A stretch of 64,000 nt of DNA. Origin: Microgenomates group bacterium (lineage in GTDB: Bacteria; Patescibacteriota; Microgenomatia; PFEM01; JBNASD01). The stretch spans positions 143 through 64,142 of the forward strand of contig JBNASD010000003.1 in NCBI GenBank assembly GCA_049720225.1. Direction: 5' to 3'. Shown here piece by piece: positions 14,889 to 64,000 of this stretch (position 1 is its first letter; each line of letters starts with the position of its first letter). The notes beneath the pieces were generated by a model. The model did not search any database and was not told where the DNA came from. It saw only the letters and a list, made by a program, of their open reading frames with translations. The position numbers and the translations under genes are program-made.

Positions 14889-15848
14889 ATGTATAATCCA
14901 TCTCCGGAAACAAAAGCAATAATACCCACTTCTAACTCATCTGAAGAAGGAAGAATAAAATTAATCAGAGATATCTCAAATATATTAACGCCCGAAAATT
15001 TTTTAACGTTATGGGGTGCTTTAAGTGAATTATTTCCCGATTCTCTTAATCCTTCGGATAAAAAATCAAAAAAACCTATGATGAGGATGAACTTTCCTCA
15101 GAAAGTAATTGAATTATATCTTGTTGGTATTGACAATATAATAACCACAACAAACTCCAAAAAAGATCCAGAAACATGGATTAAAAAAGTAGTAAGAATA
15201 ACCTGTCTGCCTGATCCTCAACAACCAATTCCTCATTTTGAAATGCCTCCCGTACCAATAATAAGCCCAATAATAGACGAAGAAGATTCTTGGAAAAAAA
15301 TAATAGAAGCTTTATTAATTTCTTATATTGAAACCCTTCAGGAATTACAAATGCCATTAGAAATAGAAGTGGACCAAGTAAGTATTAATGGTTTAAAGTC
15401 TTCAGCAACTTTAGCAGTTCCCTGGCCAACACTGAAAAATGTAATAAATTCTTCACCACATTCACCTAATTCAAAACGGTGTTTTTTTCCCTATTCCATC
15501 AATTCTCCAAATACAGAATTACTTTTTCCGTGCACTATAAGCGAAAAAAATGAAAACCAACAATCTTCTCCTCAAAACTTAGGTGAATTTACTCAATTTG
15601 TAGAAATGTTATTAAGAAAAAGATTTACAGCTGACCTTAATAGGGTTTTTAATGAAATAAAAAAGATTGTTGGAGAATATTTAAGAATCGCCAATTTACC
15701 AAAAGATCAATTACCTCAATTTACTTCAGAATTATATTTAACTTATTTAAGATGGATATATCAATTGATGAGGGTTTATTTAGATGAAGTAATTTCTCCT
15801 CTTAATGATTTTTTAAAAAAAGAAAATCCTGTTAAAATTTTATGGTAA
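14889..15848 (+). CDS. hypothetical protein
   Basis: 319 aa ORF in intergenic gap, no recognisable motifs. Confidence 0.4.
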   Translation: MYNPSPETKAIIPTSNSSEEGRIKLIRDISNILTPENFLTLWGALSELFPDSLNPSDKKSKKPMMRMNFPQKVIELYLVGIDNIITTTNSKKDPETWIKKVVRITCLPDPQQPIPHFEMPPVPIISPIIDEEDSWKKIIEALLISYIETLQELQMPLEIEVDQVSINGLKSSATLAVPWPTLKNVINSSPHSPNSKRCFFPYSINSPNTELLFPCTISEKNENQQSSPQNLGEFTQFVEMLLRKRFTADLNRVFNEIKKIVGEYLRIANLPKDQLPQFTSELYLTYLRWIYQLMRVYLDEVISPLNDFLKKENPVKILW

Positions 15849-17090
15849 AATCACCGTTAAATTTATTTTTTCCCTTTTAAATAACTGACGGGTGGTTTTT
15901 AAAACTTCCTCCTTCCCTACTTTATCAATCTCTTCTAGCGCTTGGGCAAGAGTCCGAATTTTTCCCTCCAAAATTAATTGACCAGCATAGCGGTCTGCCA
16001 TCGCCTGAGAATCTTCCAACCTTAAAATTAAATGCCCTTTAAGCATTTCTTTTGCCTTGGTCAATTCCTTATCTTCCACTTTTTTGGTCGCTAATTTTTC
16101 CATTTCTTCTTTCACTAATTTAATAGCTTGGTTAACCTTATCAAGACAAACACCTGCCCGACAAACTAAATAACCGGAATCAGTATTTGGTTCATATTCA
16201 GTAGTAATATAATAAGCTAGCCCTCGCTTTTCCCGAATTTCCAAAAATAACCGCGAACTCATTCCTCCGCCTAAAATTGCCGACAAAACCGCGGTTGACC
16301 AACGAAACTGGTCTTTTAAAGAAGGTGCCGGTACTCCTAAACAAAAATGGGCTTGCTCAGTTTTTTTGCGAATAATTTTTTGCTTTGCTTTTTTTTGATT
16401 AAGAAAGGCGTAATTGATATTTTTTGATATTTTTTTACCTACTTTTGGAAGCTGACCAAAATAATCCTCAATTAACTTAATTAATTTATTTGTCTTTTTT
16501 AACTCTTCTTTTTGGCCAGCAATTACTAAAACCATATTTTGAGCAAAATAAAGCTGACGCAAATAAGTTAAAAAGTCATCTCTTTTAAGAGCAACTACCG
16601 TTTCTTTTTCTCCAGCAATATCCCAACCCATGGAATTATCACCATAAAAAAGCCGTTCAAACTCCACCGCTACCTTAGTCATTGGCACATCTTCCCGCAT
16701 ATTAATTTCTTCAATAATTACCCCTTTCTCCCGCTCAATTTCTTCCTCTTTAAATAAAGAATTGGTAAGCATATCAGAAAGAATATCCAAAGCCAGTGGT
16801 AAATATTTTGCCGGTAATTTCACCCAATAGCCAGTAAATTCTTTATCGGTATAAGCATTAAAAATCCCCCCTACTCCCTCAATTTCACTGGCAATCTCTT
16901 TGGTAGTTGGCCGTTTTTTTGTGCCTTTAAAAGCCATATGCTCCAAAAAATGGGAAATGCCATTAATTTGCCGAGTTTCATAACGACTTCCCGCCCCCAC
17001 GCCAACCATCACTGTTACCGATTCCACCGAAGACATCGGGACTAAAACTACCCGCAAACCATTTTTAAGAGTAAATAAAGAATAATCCAT
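15840..17090 (-). CDS. M16-family zinc peptidase (insulinase-like)
   Basis: Inverted zinc motif HFLEHMAFKGT (HxxEH) near N-terminus; 416 aa. Confidence 0.85.
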   Translation of the reverse strand: MDYSLFTLKNGLRVVLVPMSSVESVTVMVGVGAGSRYETRQINGISHFLEHMAFKGTKKRPTTKEIASEIEGVGGIFNAYTDKEFTGYWVKLPAKYLPLALDILSDMLTNSLFKEEEIEREKGVIIEEINMREDVPMTKVAVEFERLFYGDNSMGWDIAGEKETVVALKRDDFLTYLRQLYFAQNMVLVIAGQKEELKKTNKLIKLIEDYFGQLPKVGKKISKNINYAFLNQKKAKQKIIRKKTEQAHFCLGVPAPSLKDQFRWSTAVLSAILGGGMSSRLFLEIREKRGLAYYITTEYEPNTDSGYLVCRAGVCLDKVNQAIKLVKEEMEKLATKKVEDKELTKAKEMLKGHLILRLEDSQAMADRYAGQLILEGKIRTLAQALEEIDKVGKEEVLKTTRQLFKREKINLTVILP

Positions 17091-17092
17091 CT

Positions 17093-17545
17093 TAAATCCT
17101 AAATTCTAATATCTAAATTCTAAACAAATTCAAAATCCAAAATAATTAAAAACTACTTTGTTTTTTCTAAAATTGAACCAAAAATTTTCATTAGTTGTGT
17201 TGTCTCTTCAATTAATTCAATTTTCTCTTTTTTTGTTCTAAAATCTGAATTGAGTAATTTTAACCAAAGTCGAGTTTCTTTTGCTTCCTTCCAATATCAT
17301 TAAAAAATCTTTTTTGCTCAAAGCCTCGTTAGCCTCAATATAATTAGCAGTAACCGAACCAGAAGAATTAATCAATTGTCTTCCATCTTCAACATTGTTC
17401 GCAGTTTTAGGTAATCTTGCTACAAATTCCCGACATTTTTTGGCGAAAATAAAAGTTCTTTCTTCTAAATCATATTTTTGAATTTTGGTCATTTGAATTT
17501 AAATATTACTTAGAAATTAGGATTTAGGATTTTGGGTTTTTACAT
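17093..17545 (-). mobile_element. small inverted-repeat-flanked cassette carrying a four-helix-bundle (23S rRNA IVS-type) protein gene
   Basis: Left arm 17093-17147 (AAATCCTAAATTCTAATATCTAAATTCTAAA...AAAATCCAAAAT) is the imperfect reverse complement of right arm 17508-17539 (TTAGAAATTAGGATTTAGGATTTTGGGTTTTT); lies in the argS-M16 intergenic gap; a 24-nt identical stretch recurs at 27576-27599. Confidence 0.45.
17153..17492 (-). pseudogene. four-helix bundle protein (TIGR02436 / 23S rRNA intervening-sequence protein family) with +1 frameshift
   Basis: Frame A MTKIQKYDLEERTFIFAKK...SVTANYIEANEALSKKDFLMIL then ends; the family-typical C-terminus KEAKETRLWLKLLNSDFRTKKEKIELIEETTQLMKIFGSILEKTK* is in the +1 frame; one extra G in ATATTGGAAGGAAGC explains it. 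Confidence 0.6.
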
Positions 17546-19525
17546 TCTCTTCGGGCATTCTATTCCCAACAATTCTAACCCATTTTTAATAATCTGCCCT
17601 ACCGCTGAAGTTAAAAGCAAACGAAAATGGCGAATATTTTCTTTCTGTTTTTCTTTTAATTTCTCGGAAACTTCATTTACTTCAGGTTCTAAAATTGGCC
17701 ATTTATTATAAAAGAAATTAAATTTCCCTGCCAAATCATATAAATAATTACAAATTAGATTAGGAGCAAAATTTTGCCCGGCTTCCAAAATTACTTCCGG
17801 AAACTTATAAATTTCTCGCAACAAAGCAATTTCTTCAGAATTTAATTTTAGAGATTTAAAATTTGAGCTTTGCGCTTTGAGCTTTGCGCTTTGAGCTTTG
17901 CGAAGCACACTTTGCGTCCGCGCGTAAGTATATTGTAAATAAGGACCGGAGTTCCCCTCCAAGGACAACGATTCATCAATATCAAAATAAATAGTGGTTT
18001 CTCGGGCAAACTTTAAAAGACTATATTTCAATGCTCCTCCTGCTACTTTTTCCGCCAAATTATCAAGTTGGTTTTTGGATAATTTTCCTCGTAATTCCTG
18101 ATTTGAGGCTTTAATAATCTCCAAAGCTTTGTTTTTTAATTCTTCCAGAATTTCATCGGCCATTACTACATCTCCTTTTCGGGTGGCCATTTTCCCTCCG
18201 CCTTTAAAATTAATTAAGGCATAACCTAAATGAAACAATTTTTCTTTTTTGGCGATTCCCAGTTGTTCGCAAATCGTAAATAATTGTTTAAAATATAAAC
18301 TTTGTTCTTCGCCAATACACCAAATATATAAATCTGAGGGAAATTTTTGGCACTTAAGTTTTGTTAATGCTAAATCTTGAGTGATATACAAAGCGGTTCC
18401 GTCAGATTTTTCTACCACCGTATCGGGTAAGTTATATTTTGATAGATTAGTTACCACCGCTCCTTCACTAAGGCGAAAAACCCCTTTTTTTAATCCCAGT
18501 TTGACAATTTCTTTTCCCAATTTATAGTGATCTGATTCATACCAAACCCAATCATGAATACTCCCTACTCGTTTATAAGTTTGGGCATAGCCATCAGCTG
18601 ACCAAGAAAGAATTTTTTGCCACAAAATTAATAGCGTTCCTTTTTTTGCTTTTCGGGGCGAAGAATATTTTTCTGCTTCTTCTTCCCAAGTCTTCAACAT
18701 CTCTCCTATTTCTTTTTTTACTCTCTCTGATAATTCATAAGCGCGGGAACCTAAAACATACCAACGTAAATTAGCGTGGTCGGGTTTAAGTTGTAAATCT
18801 TTATAAGTTAACCATTTTTTGGGATTTCTTAACCATTCTTCAAGTAGCTCCTGCCATTTCTTTTTAGCAATCACTTTTTTTATCTGCTGAGTGGTAATTT
18901 CCCGGAAATTTTTAAGGTGGGTTTTAGTTAAACCTGAGTTTTTGGAAGCAAAAACCAAATAACCCCAAAGCGCTTTACAAATATGAACTCCCCGATCGTT
19001 AACGACGCAGTCTTTAGTCACCTTTGCCCCCAAACTTTCCAAAATTCTAGACACCGTCATTCCTAAAAAATTATTCCGCAGATGCCCTAACATAATCGTT
19101 GTTTGGGGATTAGGACTGGTGTGTTCCAATAAAATTTTTTTACCCGCTAAAACAGAGGTTTGTCCAAATTTTTCTTTTTTTCTTAGCGCTTCAATAGCCT
19201 GATTGATAAGATAATCATTTTGGAGCCATATATTTATAAAACCTGGAGAAGCAACCTCTATTTTTCCTATAAAATCAGGAACGCCTTTTTCTCGAAAGGC
19301 ATTAACAATTGCATTGGCGAAATCTAAAGGATTAGAATATTTTTTTCCCAAAGAAGAAAAAAGTCTTAAAGCAACACCAGTGGCATAATCTCCATGGTCT
19401 TTTTCCAGAGGATGCTCTAAGGTAATAAAAGAGATATCTAATTTTTCTCCGGTAATTTTTTTAACCGCTTCCCCTAAAAGACAACGAATTTGATAATTTA
19501 AAGTTTCTTTATCTTCAAATTTCAT
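17540..19525 (-). CDS. argS: arginine--tRNA ligase
   Basis: Class I HIGH-type motif TIMLGHLRNNFLG, ArgS anticodon-binding C-terminus; 661 aa. Confidence 0.85.
   Translation of the reverse strand: MKFEDKETLNYQIRCLLGEAVKKITGEKLDISFITLEHPLEKDHGDYATGVALRLFSSLGKKYSNPLDFANAIVNAFREKGVPDFIGKIEVASPGFINIWLQNDYLINQAIEALRKKEKFGQTSVLAGKKILLEHTSPNPQTTIMLGHLRNNFLGMTVSRILESLGAKVTKDCVVNDRGVHICKALWGYLVFASKNSGLTKTHLKNFREITTQQIKKVIAKKKWQELLEEWLRNPKKWLTYKDLQLKPDHANLRWYVLGSRAYELSERVKKEIGEMLKTWEEEAEKYSSPRKAKKGTLLILWQKILSWSADGYAQTYKRVGSIHDWVWYESDHYKLGKEIVKLGLKKGVFRLSEGAVVTNLSKYNLPDTVVEKSDGTALYITQDLALTKLKCQKFPSDLYIWCIGEEQSLYFKQLFTICEQLGIAKKEKLFHLGYALINFKGGGKMATRKGDVVMADEILEELKNKALEIIKASNQELRGKLSKNQLDNLAEKVAGGALKYSLLKFARETTIYFDIDESLSLEGNSGPYLQYTYARTQSVLRKAQSAKLKAQSSNFKSLKLNSEEIALLREIYKFPEVILEAGQNFAPNLICNYLYDLAGKFNFFYNKWPILEPEVNEVSEKLKEKQKENIRHFRLLLTSAVGQIIKNGLELLGIECPKRM
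17864..17901. repeat. 14-nt tandem repeat (GAGCTTTGCGCTTT x ~2.7) inside argS
   Basis: Directly visible; in frame as a 42-nt block, encodes AKLKAQSAKLKAQS. Confidence 0.6.
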
Positions 19526-57958: not shown

Positions 57959-60223
57959 ATGAGAAATCAATTTAACAATTTTCAAATAAAAGGAAAAAAT
58001 ATAAAAAATTTCAAAAGCCTTAGAAAAAAAATCTGGATTTTCTTTTTGTTAGCGGCAATCATTTTTAATTTCCTCACTCTTTGGCCGGAGTTAACAACTC
58101 GTTTAGACCCCAATGATAATATTTTTCAATTTGGATTAGTTCAAAGAATGGCGCAAATTTGGGATTTAGTTTTTACCGGCAAAATTTCTCCTTTGTCTTT
58201 AATTGACCATTGGGTTCCAGCCTGGGTGCTTGGTTATCCTCTTCCCTATTACTACCAACATCTTCCTCATCTGATTATTGTGATTTTCTATAAACTTTTA
58301 TTACAAAAGGTAAACTTATATAACATTTTTAAAATAGTAAAATTTCTTCTTTGGGTTAGTTATCCCCTTGCTCTTTATCAATCCGGTCGCTGGTTTGGCT
58401 TTTCCAAAATTACCTCTGCTTTAATGGCTTTCTTTGGTTCGCAAATCATTACCGATGGTCTTTATGGAGCGGATATTGTTAGCTTTGCCTGGCGAGGATA
58501 TGGTTTAACCACCCAACTTTTTGCCTTAATTTTTACTCCCCTGGCTTTCGCTTACGGTTGGCGAATTTTAAATCAAAACAAAATCTCTTTTCGTCAAATA
58601 GCTTGGTTAACCCTGCTTTTATCCGCCAGTTTTGCCTCTCATTTAGCTTTTGGTTATTTTGTTTGTTTTTCTTTATTATTTGCCCCCTTAGCTTTTCTTC
58701 CTTGGGAAAGACTACCTTATTTTTTAACTAACTTTGCCGAAGAAAAACTTCGCTGGCAACAATTGTTAAAACCAGTTTTTAAAAAATATCAAATTTTATT
58801 TCTGACTTTTTTAACCACTTTTCTTCTTTTAAGCTACTGGTTTATTCCCCTCTTTCTCCATAATCAATACCACAATATTTCTTTTTGGGATTCACCTTTA
58901 AAATGGAACTCTTACGGAGCCAAGGAAGTTATCGTGATGTTTTTAAGCGGCCAGCTCTTTGATTTTGGCCGACCACCGATTTTAACCGCCTTGGTAATTG
59001 GCGGTTTATTTTTGGCTCTTTCTCGATTTAAACCCCGTCACCGATTTTTGGTTTTTCTTTTTGGCTTTTGGTTTGCCTTGTATTTTGGGAGAACCACTTG
59101 GGGAAAATTAATCGACCTTCTACCAATGATGAGGGAAATGCACCAACAGCGGTTAGTGAATAGCTTACATATAGTTTGTATCTTTTTGATAGGTTTATTT
59201 GGAGGGTTTCTCTGGCGAAAAATTAAAAATTTGGCAATTAAATTGAAAATAAAACCTACTTTTATTGTTTCTTCTATCCTTTTTATCATCTTAGGAATTC
59301 CTGTTTATAAGGCAAACTGGCAGTATTTAAAACTTAATTCTTCGTGGATTAAACAGGATAATCAAGCTTATGAGCAAATAAAAAATGACTATCAGGCGCT
59401 AATAAACTATCTTAAAAGTCTTCCCCCAGGAAGAATTTATATCTTTAAAAAAACCAAGGACGGTCAACCATTCAATATTGGCCAAACCGCTATCTTTTTG
59501 GCTTTAAGCCGGGAAACTTTTCCCACCGTTGGTTTTCTTCCAGAAACTTGGTCACTTAATAGCGATATTGAACTTTTATTTGACGAAAACAATCCCCAAC
59601 ATTATCGCCTTTTCAATGTCCGTTGGGTAGTTTTGCCCCACGATAATCCTTTACCTGATTTTATGAAAGAAAAAGCAGTTTTTGGTCCTTTTAAGGTAGC
59701 AGAAGTGGAAAGCGGCGGTTATTTTACCCTCGGTACCAGTCAATTAAAAGTTAAAACGAACAAAGAGAATATTTTTAACTTTCTTCATTTATGGTTTTGG
59801 TCTGACAAACCTACGCAAAATGAGTTTCCTACTTTAGAACTTAATGGAGAAGATCCTCAACCACCAGTTTTTAATTCCCTTCCTTATTCCCATTTTTCCC
59901 CACCTAAAAATTTGGGAATTATTGATGAAGAAAAAGTAGAAGATGAAAAATATCAAGCAAAATTTACCGTTGCCGACTCTTGTCAAAATTGCCTTTTGGT
60001 TTTCAAAATGACTTATCATCCCAACTGGCAAGTATTTCTGGATGGTCAAAAAGCAGAAAAAATAATGGTTTTTCCCAGTTTTATCGCCCTTAAAGTCTCC
60101 CCAGGTGCGCATCAGGTAGTTTTTTATTACCAACCTTATTGGCTAAAAATCCCCCTTTTAATTATTGGTTGGCTTGTCTTTTTCTTTTTTGTTTTTAAAA
60201 GAAAATTTTTATTAAGGGATTAA
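57959..60223 (+). CDS. large polytopic membrane protein (YfhO/GT-C-like), hypothetical
   Basis: 754 aa, ~14 TMs plus C-terminal soluble domain. Confidence 0.5.
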   Translation: MRNQFNNFQIKGKNIKNFKSLRKKIWIFFLLAAIIFNFLTLWPELTTRLDPNDNIFQFGLVQRMAQIWDLVFTGKISPLSLIDHWVPAWVLGYPLPYYYQHLPHLIIVIFYKLLLQKVNLYNIFKIVKFLLWVSYPLALYQSGRWFGFSKITSALMAFFGSQIITDGLYGADIVSFAWRGYGLTTQLFALIFTPLAFAYGWRILNQNKISFRQIAWLTLLLSASFASHLAFGYFVCFSLLFAPLAFLPWERLPYFLTNFAEEKLRWQQLLKPVFKKYQILFLTFLTTFLLLSYWFIPLFLHNQYHNISFWDSPLKWNSYGAKEVIVMFLSGQLFDFGRPPILTALVIGGLFLALSRFKPRHRFLVFLFGFWFALYFGRTTWGKLIDLLPMMREMHQQRLVNSLHIVCIFLIGLFGGFLWRKIKNLAIKLKIKPTFIVSSILFIILGIPVYKANWQYLKLNSSWIKQDNQAYEQIKNDYQALINYLKSLPPGRIYIFKKTKDGQPFNIGQTAIFLALSRETFPTVGFLPETWSLNSDIELLFDENNPQHYRLFNVRWVVLPHDNPLPDFMKEKAVFGPFKVAEVESGGYFTLGTSQLKVKTNKENIFNFLHLWFWSDKPTQNEFPTLELNGEDPQPPVFNSLPYSHFSPPKNLGIIDEEKVEDEKYQAKFTVADSCQNCLLVFKMTYHPNWQVFLDGQKAEKIMVFPSFIALKVSPGAHQVVFYYQPYWLKIPLLIIGWLVFFFFVFKRKFLLRD

Positions 60224-60804
60224 TAAAAAAAATTTTCTTTTTAAATTTATTAATTTAAACAATTAAATTCTTAAAATTTAATTTAAGACGGTAAATAAGA
60301 GATAAAAAAAGAAAATTTTCGACTAATCAATAAAATCAAAAATCTGCTAAAAAAATCTTATAAAGTTTTATTCTAGGACGTCAAAATTCCCTGTTTTTTT
60401 AAACATTTTTAAAACAAAAAAGTTTTTATAAATTATTTTTTAAAAATTGTGTGTTCTTTTTTAATAAAAATTTTATGATTTATTTTTAATTAACCCTTTA
60501 AATAAAAAACTTTCCCCTTTTTATTAACTTTCATTTAAAAATCTTTTAAAAAATGGCTTTTAAGTTATAGGATTAAAGTTTTACTTTTTAACTTAAATAT
60601 ATCTTAATATATCATTTGCCATTTTTACCTTAGTTTTTGATTGTTGATATATTTAGATATTTTATGTATATATTAAAATGGGTATTTTGCGGTAATTATT
60701 ATCAGTGAAAATAAAAGTGAAAATAAAAACTCCCCCTAAAAACGAACTTCCGAGGCATTTTTTTATACCTGTTCTAAATATATCAAATTTAACAATCTCA
60801 TCTC

Positions 60805-60833
60805 TTGACAAACCTAAAAAATCTTATTATAGT
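60805..60833 (+). promoter_or_regulatory. sigma70-type promoter (TTGACA-17-TATAGT) upstream of 60903
   Basis: TTGACA at 60805-60810, 17-nt spacer, TATAGT at 60828-60833, ~70 nt before ATG. Confidence 0.5.
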
Positions 60834-60902
60834 AGATTTAAATAAAATATAATCTTGATATAATCAGTATAATTTGAACCTAAATTTGAAATTGCGGAAA
60901 AA

Positions 60903-61382
60903 ATGAACCTGCCCGAAAAATTTAAGCTTTATTTAATAACGCAAAAGTCTTCGCCGGTAACGGTTAAAAATTATGTGGCAGATATTAAAAAATTCCTTGA
61001 CTGGTTAGCCAAAAAAACCGGTATTCTCTATCAAGTCGCTGGGGCTTCTATTTTCGGCCTTTTTACTAAAGAAACAATCCTCGAATATCAGCAGGACTTA
61101 ATGAGTGCTAAAATTCCCTCATCAACAATTAATCGCTATTTATCGGCTCTTCGTAAATTTGGTGATTTTGCTTTAAGCCAAGGATGGCTCCAAAGTAATC
61201 CTGCAGATGAAATTAATAACGTTAGTTTGGAAAAAATAAAAACTTTTACCGCTGAAAACGATCAGGAAAAACTTTTAGCAGAATTTCAAAAGGACTTAGA
61301 GAAAGAAAAAGTCAGTTCCCTGACGATTAAAAACTATTTAGTCGATATTCGTCATTTTTTAAGTTGGTTAAAGAGAAATTAA
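60903..61382 (+). CDS. tandem phage-integrase N-terminal SAM-like (core-binding) domain protein lacking a catalytic domain
   Basis: Two copies of the XerD-type N-terminal pattern: ...PVTVKNYVADIKKFLDWLAKK and ...SSLTIKNYLVDIRHFLSWLKRN; 159 aa. Confidence 0.55.
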   Translation: MNLPEKFKLYLITQKSSPVTVKNYVADIKKFLDWLAKKTGILYQVAGASIFGLFTKETILEYQQDLMSAKIPSSTINRYLSALRKFGDFALSQGWLQSNPADEINNVSLEKIKTFTAENDQEKLLAEFQKDLEKEKVSSLTIKNYLVDIRHFLSWLKRN

Positions 61383-61425
61383 AAAAATTTTTAAAACTAA
61401 ACTAACCTATCTAAAAATAAATAAT

Positions 61426-61472
61426 CCCCCCAATTTAGGGGGGCGTGATTAAGTTAATTTTATAACATAATG
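61426..61472 (+). promoter_or_regulatory. repeated intergenic unit copy 1: GC hairpin (CCCCCC-AATTTA-GGGGGG) + CGTGATTAAGTTAATTTTATAACATAATG spanning next start codon
   Basis: Directly visible; the 3' part recurs at 62040-62066. Confidence 0.5.
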
Positions 61473-62048
61473 AAACAACTCTTGTCAAGCCAACCAGAAC
61501 AAATTTTAAAACTTAAGGGGCCAACGGTGGTGATTGTTGATTGGGCTAATGTCCATGGATGGGAGGAAAAACTCCGTTGGGAAATTGATTTGAAAAAACT
61601 TTATCGATATCTTAAGAGTTATCCGCAAATTCAAGAATTTCGTTTCTATTTTGGTACCGACGCTCATCCGGCTTCAAAACAACAGTTAAAACAAGCTCAA
61701 GAAATCGGTTTTAAAGTAATTACTAAAACGGTGAAATATCTCCCAATAAAAGACAAAAATATTGTCATTTGGAAAAGAAAGTGCGATTTCGACTTGGAAA
61801 TTGGCTTGGATTGTTTTGAAATGTTGGAAAAATTTGCTGGATTTATCTTTTTTAGCGGTGATGGTGATTTTGCTGCTTTATATCGCCGATTGGTGAAAAG
61901 AAAAAAACAGGTAATTGTGGTGGCTACTAAGTGGTCTTTAGGAAAAGAAATTACGCAAATTAAAAGAGGAGTTTATATCTTGCGGGTAAATAAACTTAAA
62001 AGTTTTATAAAAAAATCCCCCCGATTGAAAAATCGGGGGTGCGATTAG
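61470..62048 (+). CDS. NYN-domain (LabA-like, PIN-related) protein
   Basis: VVIVDWANVH..., FYFGTDA, FFSGDGDFAALYRRL...VIVVA match NYN/LabA consensus. Confidence 0.6.
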   Translation: MKQLLSSQPEQILKLKGPTVVIVDWANVHGWEEKLRWEIDLKKLYRYLKSYPQIQEFRFYFGTDAHPASKQQLKQAQEIGFKVITKTVKYLPIKDKNIVIWKRKCDFDLEIGLDCFEMLEKFAGFIFFSGDGDFAALYRRLVKRKKQVIVVATKWSLGKEITQIKRGVYILRVNKLKSFIKKSPRLKNRGCD

Positions 62049-62066
62049 TTATTTTATAACATAACC
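62016..62066 (+). promoter_or_regulatory. repeated intergenic unit copy 2: hairpin (CCCCCCGATT-GAAAA-AATCGGGGG) + TGCGATTAGTTATTTTATAACATAA
   Basis: Hairpin overlaps the last codons of 61470..62048; followed by TTGTCAAG and ATG of next gene. Confidence 0.5.
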
Positions 62067-62074
62067 AAAATTTT

Positions 62075-64000
62075 TTGTCAAGAAATGGAAATTACTAAAC
62101 AACAAATAACCAATTACCAACGCCGTTTACAGGAGTTGGGGCTTTCCCCCTCCTCAATTAAACGCCGAATGGCGGCGGTGCGCAAATTTTGTCAGTGGGC
62201 GGTAGAGAAAGGCTATCTAGCGAAAAATCCTTTTGCTCAACCAGTCACCGCGCCACGTTGGGTAAATAGATTTTTGGGTACCCAATTACCAAAAGGCGAA
62301 CCTAAAACTTGGCGGGAAAAAATTCTTGCTAAAATTCAACCCTTCCTCACTTCCCTTTTAACAAATATATCAAAAATTTACCAAGCATATACTTCTATAT
62401 CAATTACCCGCTACCTCCATTGGGCAATTTTGATTGTTTTGTGTACCGCCTTAGGATTTGGAATTTACGACCAGTTTATCCGTAAAGCGCCAGAAAAATT
62501 AGCTTATCCAAGCGTTCCTACTCCTCCCAAAAGATATTTAAGCTTTCAGGGGCGATTAACTGATTCTTCTAATAATCCCATCACTTCCGCTACAGAGATA
62601 ACTTTTAAGTTATGGAATCATGCTACTAATAATACCGAAGTCAGTTGCGATGGGGGCGGAGACGAAAACTGTTTATGGAGTTCAGGAACCTGCACCGTCA
62701 CTCCTGACCAGGATGGAATCTTTAATGTTATTTTGGGAACTACTTCTGGAGATGGTTATTCTTGTCCTTCGGCAACAGAAATTAGCGCCTCGGTTTTTAC
62801 CGAAAATGTTGAAGTTTGGCTGGGAGTAAAAGTTGATGGTGACGATGAAATGACGCCGCGGGTACAAATTGCCTCAGTGGCTTATGCTCTAAACGCCGCC
62901 ACTTTACAAGGTTTGCCCCCAGGCACTACCGCCTCCACTATCCCCTATATTAACTCTGAAGGAAAATTAGTAATTGCCGCTTCCTCTCCTACCATTGAAT
63001 CTACCTCCGGCACTTTTGCCATAAAAGGTCAAGCACTAACCATTACCACCGCCACCGGTTCTGATGGTAATATCACCTTAGCACCTGATGGATCGGGAGT
63101 GATAAACCTTATTCTTAACGCTCCAAAGGGAAATTTGCTAAATGCCTCGGCGGCAAATTTGGGAGCAAGCGGTCAAAAAGAAGAAAATACCCTTTATTAT
63201 GGTGTCGTGGCCAACGATAACACTAATTTTAATTTATTAAAACTAGAGTCCGGCTCTACCCCCACCCCAAAATTTACTATTGATGCTTTAGGTAATGCTT
63301 CCGCCGCTGGGAATTTACGAATTTTAGGAACAGGAAATAATTTTTTTGCTGGCAATGTGGGAATCGGTACTACCAATCCCGCTTACGGTTTAGATGTAGC
63401 TTTAGTTTCAAGTGGAATTTCCGGTAGATTCTCCGGAAGAGTCATTGGTGCGGATGCGGTAAATAGTAATGAGTTTGTAACGTTGGCGCAATTACAAGGA
63501 GGAAGTGGGAGTTTGTGGTTGGATGGTGGAGATTATCTTTATCCCAATTCTTCTTTTGCGACCAGTGTCATGGTACCTTCAGGAAATATTGGGATTGGAG
63601 TAACAGGAACTTCCGGATACAATCTTTATGTTTCCGGAACTGCTAATGTTTCTACTTCTTTAACTACACCTTTGATTATTGGTTCTTCTTCTTTAGCTTT
63701 AAGACCAGCTTCTAATTCTACTACCGCTATTCAATTACAAAATGCTTCAGGAACACCAATATTAAATATAGATACGACAAATCAAAGAATTGGAATTGGA
63801 ACTACTGCTCCTTCCTATTCCTTAGATGTTTCCGGAACCTTAAGAACCACGGATATCTCTTGGCTAGGAAGTGGGTTAACTGGACAGGGACTATATATCA
63901 ATTCCTCTGGTAACGTTGGCATCGGGACGACGGGACCACAACAAAAATTAGATGTTCGTGGAAGAATTTTTGTAGGAGATGCTTATGAGGACAGCGGTGC
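62075..64000 (+). CDS. large (>641 aa, runs off window) protein: N-terminal integrase-type SAM-like core-binding domain + TM helix + extracellular fibre-like region with repeated (N)[VI]GIGTTxPxxxLDVxG motifs
   Basis: Open frame from ATG 62075 to window end (hand-translated, no stops); N-terminal QITNYQRRLQELGLSPSSIKRRMAAVRKFCQWAVEKGYLAKNPFA; TM ISITRYLHWAILIVLCTALGFGIY; repeats NVGIGTTNPAYGLDV / RIGIGTTAPSYSLDVSG / NVGIGTTGPQQKLDVRG. Confidence 0.6.

Follow-up and report, generated by a model that had tools for sequence, protein, structure and literature searches.

Cis-antisense RNAs that overlap the 3' end of a message are found in type I toxin-antitoxin loci such as txpA/RatA, bsrG/SR4 and par of pAD1. 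A gene in pieces has been described in Aeromonas phage Aeh1, where mobE, a free-standing homing endonuclease gene, interrupts nrdA (PMC3045599; for a review see PMC2988022), and the intervening sequences (IVSs) of 23S rRNA, which carry S23p/four-helix-bundle open reading frames (ORFs), are excised by RNase III (PMC4990558). For the LabA-like NYN proteins (COG1432, PF01936) no function has been established, and a link with tRNA and rRNA processing has been proposed (PMC5499597). Here we describe a locus at the end of a 64,000-nucleotide (nt) stretch of DNA from a Microgenomates group bacterium (GenBank assembly GCA_049720225.1, contig JBNASD010000003.1, positions 143 to 64,142), which as a whole is called the window and in which all positions are counted. 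Three co-oriented plus-strand ORFs, named P1, NYN and P3, are accompanied there by two copies of a hairpin-bearing repeat, units A and B (Table 1). We consider it probable that P1 and P3 are pieces of one split surface-protein gene, that the NYN gene is cargo at their junction and that the repeat is the 3' antisense module of the NYN gene.

By comparison with its homologues, the locus is best described as one giant membrane-anchored surface-protein gene of Microgenomates (Candidate Phyla Radiation (CPR)/Patescibacteria) that is cut within its second core-binding (CB) domain. A query made of P1 fused to the start of P3 retrieved 90 proteins of Patescibacteria, many of which align over 96-100% of its length in a single chain (for example the homologues P0005, P0010, P0014, P0022 and P0024). 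In these uninterrupted proteins two CB domains are followed by a transmembrane (TM) helix and then by a conserved ectodomain with the motif AYP...R.LSFQGRLTDS, and they are colinear with P1 plus P3 over the junction, where a variable linker of 0-12 residues is found. Related loci (labelled L plus a number) were gathered from GTDB genomes with a P3 profile (80 loci) and from metagenomes with a P1 profile (another 80). The split site is identical in 76 distinct loci, in which the P1-like ORFs end at query residues 153-159, and the gene is fused in 22. The smallest junctions read TAA-AA-ATG (L086/L087) or, in frame, TAA-ATG (L049) and therefore imply stop-start coupling of the P1 and P3 cistrons; elsewhere the spacer reaches ~1 kb, and the sequence of an empty junction is TAAAAATGGAAATAAC. 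A programmed frameshift or bypass over the junction was rejected, as the minimal junctions contain no slippery site.

The domain matches are divided between the two pieces. A preliminary description of this DNA had placed the three ORFs where we find them, and its CB (SAM-like) and NYN domain calls are supported by Pfam (P1 matches Phage_int_SAM_1 (PF02899) in two stretches, E = 1.4e-17; NYN, E = 1.9e-16). It had taken the locus for an array of CB-only proteins, instead of which there is one ancestral CB-CB-TM-ectodomain gene cut in the second CB domain: of the two tandem SAM-like domains that it had assigned to P1, the first is complete and the second consists of helices 1 and 2 only, which AlphaFold2 (AF2) places at residues 117-134 and 139-155. 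P1 also matches SAM_4 and SAM_5, the CB-domain profiles matched in the locus being PF02899, PF13495 and PF13102; in NCBIfam it matches XerC positions 3-115, that is, the N-terminal part of XerC/XerD only, with 58 bits against a cut-off of 335. The large third gene, said to open with a clear SAM-like domain, opens with the second half of one: residues 2-51 of P3 match SAM_1 and SAM_5, the match extending over profile positions 42-83 of 83 only (residues 2-43), and NCBIfam finds XerC positions 43-98 (XerC/XerD 29 bits, cut-offs ~330). The TM helix proposed for this gene is borne out by the AF2 model, in which the half CB domain is followed by a TM helix at residues 108-133 and a conserved beta-sandwich at residues 150-265 (predicted local distance difference test (pLDDT) >90); the long low-complexity ectodomain beyond them is poorly predicted. 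A fold search with the P3 ectodomain returned generic beta-sandwich matches only, and in NCBIfam P3 weakly matches adhesive fibre proteins of Bdellovibrio. The tyrosine-recombinase catalytic domain is lacking, as had been noticed earlier: Pfam finds no PF00589 match in P1 or in P3 residues 1-638, the part visible before the ORF runs past the window end at 64000, and complete homologues of 806-2141 residues are without any integrase catalytic domain.

When P1 and P3 were modelled as a fusion, AF2 gave a mean pLDDT of 90.8 and placed the junction (residues 159/160) in a loop between helices 139-155 and 164-176; the best Foldseek matches of this model are all CB domains of tyrosine recombinases (2oxo, TM-score 0.73; 3nrw, TM-score 0.70). 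It is probable that the two halves come together again as a single four-helix domain, and this reassembled CB domain would lie at the inner face of the membrane, with the CB domains in the cytoplasm, a single TM helix and the large ectodomain outside. Both pieces and the NYN gene would be read from the one promoter upstream of P1 as a single P1-NYN-P3 transcript, because no convincing plus-strand terminator is found between the genes. At the equivalent place upstream of P1, L001 and L002 have TTGACA and then TATAGT (spacing uncounted). The 680 nt upstream of P1 (60224-60902) are very AT-rich and contain several promoter-like sites and no ORF of 60 or more residues. It was also observed that NYN and P3 share one reading frame (61470-62087), in which one TAG (62046-62048) followed by 12 sense codons keeps them apart; this is probably due to chance, and read-through would fuse the two proteins.

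The NYN ORF matches Pfam NYN with 61.3 bits against a gathering score of 24.2, and the acidic motifs VDWAN, CDFDLE and SGDGDF, common to its homologues, are intact. A protein 100% identical to it is held by a metagenome-assembled genome of the Microgenomates group, where it is named NYN domain protein. Each end of this gene touches a copy of the repeat. The preliminary description had reported a duplicated unit of ~55 nt; the duplication is real, bears a hairpin and includes TTGTCAAG, and it is longer than had been thought, ~73-75 nt, the copies being roughly 75-80% identical. In the 64 kb, the 13-mer TTTTATAACATAA has exact matches at the two unit sites only, and the covariance model of the unit (R1, run on the window and on ~1.08 Mb of related loci) finds two copies only in the window (unit B, E = 7e-15, 78.5 bits; unit A, E = 3e-11, 61.2 bits). 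As described before, start codons stand in or just after the units: the NYN ATG lies inside unit A, and the P3 ATG 3 nt after unit B.

This position immediately upstream of start codons favours the earlier reading, in which the units are plus-strand leaders, acting as an operator or RNA element bound by the CB proteins or representing degenerate recombination sites, and in which the three genes together serve regulation, defence or DNA handling; CB domains of recombinases, to which the fold match points, bind DNA, and a PADLOC model of NYN matches. The distribution of the unit, however, largely refutes such a role. It was found at the 3' end of 9 of 9 independent NYN genes, and the NYN homologues occur in the orders PEGA-NYN-mreB (75% identity), arginase-NYN-argS, ComEC-lactamase-NYN-argS and large protein-NYN-TPR, so that the unit also stands behind NYN genes whose surroundings contain no CB protein. 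The split-junction NYN genes of L005, L006, L088 and L121 all end in the same module. R1 finds 13 copies in the ~1.08 Mb of related loci, all of which, like the two in the window, lie at NYN 3' ends or in NYN remnants; the unit is thus conserved beyond the two spacers of the window, and where the junction is free of cargo (46 loci) it precedes neither P3 nor P1. Moreover, the complete homologues have no catalytic recombinase domain, the PADLOC match is a generic NYN match and no partner defence genes are present. A plus-strand promoter or leader was also rejected because the unit has no -35 box at a usable distance and is missing from the cargo-free junctions. A leader function is therefore regarded as very improbable, and the unit is best regarded as a conserved 3' module of NYN genes, with which it is exclusively associated.

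Unit A has no NYN gene in front of it. One of its frames translates as K*SPQFRGA*, similar to the C-terminal tails of NYN proteins, which marks unit A as the apparent solo remnant of an earlier NYN copy that has been lost, comparable to the solo units of L008/L117 and L091. Besides unit A, solo or remnant units are found in L008/L117, L089 and L091.

The conserved positions of the unit also speak for the minus strand. In the alignment of 12 units (unit A and 11 others), the order on this strand is TTGACA, 17 or 18 nt, TGT-TATAAA, ~13 nt, a GC hairpin and a T-run; TTGACA is invariant in 12/12 units and TG-n-TA..A nearly so, at a spacing of 17 nt (18 in unit A) over a spacer of variable sequence. 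Such conserved -35 and -10 boxes, lying 16-18 nt apart with a variable spacer between them, are those of a predicted sigma-70 promoter, and it is this pair, instead of any plus-strand signal of a leader, that is kept among relatives. The hairpin changes in sequence from one relative to another while its pairing stays. Both hairpins of the window are called as intrinsic terminators on the minus strand, and the predicted U-run exists on that strand only. The minus-strand hairpin is more stable than its plus-strand counterpart by 3.5-5.8 kcal/mol in L173, L177, L179 and L006, owing to G.U pairs that are found on the minus strand only, and the summed hairpin energies are -188 (minus) versus -171 (plus); this asymmetry likewise disfavours a plus-strand leader.

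Most likely, the unit serves to produce a cis-antisense RNA that controls the NYN gene. The convergent sigma-70 promoter (TTGACA, 17 nt, TGnTATAAA) would fire into the GC hairpin and U-run that overlap the NYN stop, and each unit would yield an antisense RNA of ~37-40 nt. This RNA could pair with the 3' end of the NYN message in the case of unit B, or with the P1-NYN spacer in the case of unit A, and the pairing may lower NYN expression or trigger cleavage of the P1-NYN-P3 transcript at the duplex. If so, the NYN gene with its convergent promoter and terminator would form a compact, recognisable module that is absent from Rfam and through which the role and regulation of LabA-type NYN proteins could be tested.

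A simpler view is that the units are bidirectional or fortuitous terminators next to AT-rich sequence, conserved because they encode the NYN C-terminus, and that there is neither an antisense RNA nor any regulation. Indeed, the hairpin of unit B overlaps the last NYN codons (stop codon 62046-62048), and of 120 NYN homologues at least 58 have C-terminal tails for which the hairpin plus GCGTGA(TTAA) is the coding sequence, in two frames. The final codons and the stop are provided, in either of these frames, by the hairpin together with the GCGTGATTAA behind it, which explains why the tails ...KKMSPNRRSGA and ...KKYPPTxGRGRD recur among NYN proteins. Promoter-like hexamers are, in addition, common in AT-rich DNA (7 found versus 5.8 expected in the scan of the local region). 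On the other hand, the -35 and -10 boxes are not part of the ORF, and TTGACA is nevertheless retained in all 12 units at a fixed distance of 17-18 nt; reading of the tail in two different frames argues for a constraint at the nucleotide level; solo units that have no NYN gene (L008/L117, L091 and unit A) keep an intact promoter; and the U-run is confined to the minus strand. This simpler view is thus considered unlikely.

Several points weigh against the proposed split gene with its antisense-controlled cargo. The promoter, terminator and antisense RNA of the unit are predictions from sequence, and an RNA of ~40 nt, hardly more than a terminator hairpin, is unusual. The TATAAA of the unit fails the strict rule of the promoter scan, which requires a final T (T6) in the -10 hexamer; the unit promoters were missed by the scan because their second hexamer ends in A. 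Conservation of the hairpin could in part reflect selection on the protein, because the NYN C-terminus is encoded there as well. The two halves of the CB domain were modelled together as a covalent fusion only, and L003, a close relative in P3, has no P1 within 400 nt upstream. Finally, most relatives have a different, larger structured element after P1.

This larger element, for which a second covariance model (R2) was built, is 85-110 nt long and is found after the P1 stop in 51 loci and nowhere else (for example L121:3996-4078 and L001:5888-5987); it is absent from the window. It has a closing stem GCGGG/CCCGC, with compensatory changes in L007 and L155, an apical loop GGGGGGAG and a tail TTTAATTATAACAC, which gives a perfect TGnTATAAT when read on the minus strand (24 of 27 loci). 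Its energies and G.U counts conflict with this perfect minus-strand TATAAT, and it has no match in Rfam. In L102 (3960-4050) and L124 (4072-4150), the structured element is followed, ahead of the P3 start, by 2-3 copies of a short tandem repeat of ~31-35 nt. For the window itself, Rfam reports only two tRNAs at the gathering score, and nothing credible was found for 60200-62400 and for 8 related loci when E-values up to 10 were allowed; an intron, a ribozyme or a known RNA was accordingly rejected, having no match at gathering or permissive E-values. Literature searches returned nothing specific on this protein family or on an NYN-antisense module.

Table 1. Genes and predicted signals of the locus in window coordinates (aa, amino-acid residues).
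Feature	Position	Strand	Remarks
Predicted sigma-70-type promoter (TTGACA, 17 nt, TATAGT)	60805-60833	+	Would drive the P1-NYN-P3 string; 11/12 consensus, best of the region
P1, N-terminal piece of the split gene, 159 aa	60903-61382	+	CB1 aa 5-94; CB2 helices 1-2 aa ~117-155
NYN/LabA-like (COG1432-type) PIN-fold nuclease gene, 192 aa	61470-62048	+	Insert at the P1-P3 junction
P3, C-terminal piece of the split gene, >638 aa	62085-64000 (runs off window)	+	CB2 helices 3-4, linker helices, TM helix, ectodomain
Unit A, putative solo NYN-type 3' module	61416-61488	-	Covariance match; terminator call; alignment with 11 units
Unit A, predicted promoter	-35 TTGACA 61488-61483; 18-nt spacer; TGT + TATAAA 61467-61459	-	
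Unit A, predicted terminator	Hairpin 61443-61426; T-rich tail ATTATTTATT 61425-61416	-	~13-nt leader; 7 pairs
Unit A, predicted RNA	~61452 to 61416	-	
Unit B, putative 3' module of the resident NYN gene	62007-62081	-	Covariance match; terminator call; at 3' end of every NYN examined
Unit B, predicted promoter	-35 TTGACA 62081-62076; 17-nt spacer; TGT + TATAAA 62061-62053	-	
Unit B, predicted terminator	Hairpin 62039-62018; tail GATTTTTTTA 62017-62008	-	~13-nt leader; 9-bp hairpin
Unit B, predicted RNA	~62046 to 62010	-	

The junction between P1 and P3 is a place of frequent change. Among the 76 split loci, 46 have no cargo, 21 carry a four-helix-bundle gene (PF05635/TIGR02436), at least 4 an NYN gene, 1 a GxxExxY gene (PDDEXK_3) and 4 other cargo, the figure for NYN being a lower bound as more are found on truncated contigs. 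Among loci whose P1 DNA is 85-95% identical, the content of the junction differs: the junction is empty in L087, holds an internally deleted NYN gene in L089, minus-strand peptide genes and an NYN gene in L088 and L090, and a solo unit in L091. In L095 the NYN ATG stands exactly where the P3 ATG stands in empty junctions. In the window the insert measures 702 nt and is almost filled by the NYN ORF, whose product is 75% identical to that of the mreB-adjacent NYN gene and at most 50% identical to NYN proteins encoded at the same site elsewhere (32-35% for L005/L006); the NYN genes at the split junction are, by these identities, polyphyletic. No inverted repeats of 16 nt or more bracket the window insert in 61380-62090, and none were found at L121, for which reason an IVS-like stem around the NYN insert was rejected.

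Other cargo was observed along with these changes. Inverted repeats of 17-50 nt bracket four-helix-bundle or GxxExxY genes at the junctions of L011 (1699-2174), L054 (2855-3737), L037 (5418-5818), L109 (4068-4497) and L004 (3746-4196). On the minus strand, the junctions of close relatives carry genes for hydrophobic peptides of 28-35 residues (L003:1-160, L085:2750-2980, L088:2150-2560, L090:620-940); the gene in L085 is equipped with a TTGACA-17-TATATT promoter of its own and with a Shine-Dalgarno sequence, and L003 and L090 were checked for a promoter only. In L089 (820-2600) the deleted NYN gene is followed by the first ~9 codons of P3 (MEINKGKIL) and then by a different TM protein, a hybrid that suggests recombination at the junction. 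In a distant clade, a plus-strand ORF of 45-60 codons overlaps the P1 stop as ATGA (L031, L038, L042, L044, L056, L068, L071, L074, L075, L084, L158); most of these ORFs carry W[CF]DPAxEGxPY, more weakly in L056, L071 and L158, and they may encode a conserved micro-protein between the two halves. The window also contains a frameshifted four-helix-bundle (23S_rRNA_IVP-like) gene at 17159-17492 on the minus strand, between argS (17540-19525) and a peptidase M16 gene (15840-17090), and this genome therefore also carries a cargo family that is seen at the split junction in relatives.

Such turnover raises the question of whether the NYN gene and its antisense module are an addiction or homing cassette that targets the P1-P3 junction for its own sake, as the IVS-type and GxxExxY cassettes would, in which NYN would be the toxin, or else a site-specific nuclease, and the small RNA would be the antidote. 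NYN genes of polyphyletic origin are found at this one junction, near-identical strains include variants in which the gene is present, absent or deleted, and the NYN gene of L095 begins exactly at the former P3 ATG; other cargo at the junction belongs to families named after the 23S rRNA IVS and is flanked by inverted repeats, and the IVS has been described as a selfish element (PMC4990558). However, NYN genes also sit in stable, tight spots beside housekeeping genes (in two genomes the neighbour downstream is argS), DNA cleavage is not known as an activity of LabA-type NYN proteins, which have been linked to tRNA and rRNA processing (PMC5499597), no target-site duplication is seen beyond ATG(G), and the hot spot may simply be a gap that is tolerated in a compact genome. 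We regard an addiction or homing cassette of this kind as improbable. It is possible, though doubtful, that the NYN genes of Microgenomates and their units are self-contained selfish mobile cassettes, made of an RNase and an antisense RNA, that home together with IVS-type and GxxExxY cassettes into the split-gene junction; three widespread small orphan gene families would then be tied to one kind of mobility, and the module would be a new RNA-controlled nuclease module.

The split surface-protein gene with its NYN cargo can be compared with several known systems. Like the tyrosine recombinases XerC/XerD, lambda Int and Cre, P1 and P3 match the CB profiles and share the same four/five-helix bundle fold; unlike in them, no catalytic domain is found in P1, in the visible part of P3 or in the complete homologues, the CB domains are joined to a TM helix and a very large ectodomain, and one of these domains is divided over two polypeptides. 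A common annotation error is thereby corrected: hundreds of CPR proteins that carry the name "site-specific integrase" would be giant surface proteins, anchored in the membrane, that have their CB domains in the cytoplasm and lack recombinase activity. An integron cassette with attC was rejected as well, because the locus has no integrase catalytic domain and the hairpin is a simple G/C stem of freely varying sequence. As in nrdA/mobE, a small nuclease gene cuts a conserved gene into two adjacent, co-oriented cistrons whose products are expected to reassemble, whereas here the genome is that of a cellular CPR bacterium and the cargo varies (NYN, four-helix bundle, GxxExxY). The distribution of NYN is patchy and site-specific, and DNA homing is not a known activity of this nuclease; since most relatives have the split without any cargo, the split either came first or outlived the invader. 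A cut through the middle of a fold that is conserved across the clade, with coupled cistrons and fast turnover at the junction, would represent natural genes in pieces in a cellular genome.

The commonest junction cargo in relatives belongs to the same family (PF05635/TIGR02436) as the ORFs of the 23S rRNA IVS and has inverted repeats of 25-50 nt around it, but it lies inside an mRNA, between the halves of a protein gene, and not in rRNA; terminal inverted repeats, present around the cargo of L011, L054, L037, L109 and L004, are missing from the window insert and from L121. The presence of this family at the same junction suggests that such elements can live in mRNAs. With type I toxin-antitoxin loci the module would share a convergent promoter just past the stop, a short RNA that overlaps the 3' end of the message and a hairpin that doubles as terminator. 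Yet the gene encodes a soluble PIN-fold nuclease of 192 residues instead of a hydrophobic peptide of <60 residues, and the predicted RNA has only ~40 nt; the module is not a member of this family. The NYN protein belongs to the LabA-like group by its domain and its intact acidic motifs, and the argS neighbourhood of NYN genes in relatives, argS being tRNA-related, fits the proposed role in RNA processing; what sets it apart is the conserved 3' antisense promoter-terminator module, which is not in Rfam and is not described for the family in the literature that we found. Taken together, the locus is a variant of gene fission with cargo insertion, combined with a cis-antisense module, and both of these are known kinds.

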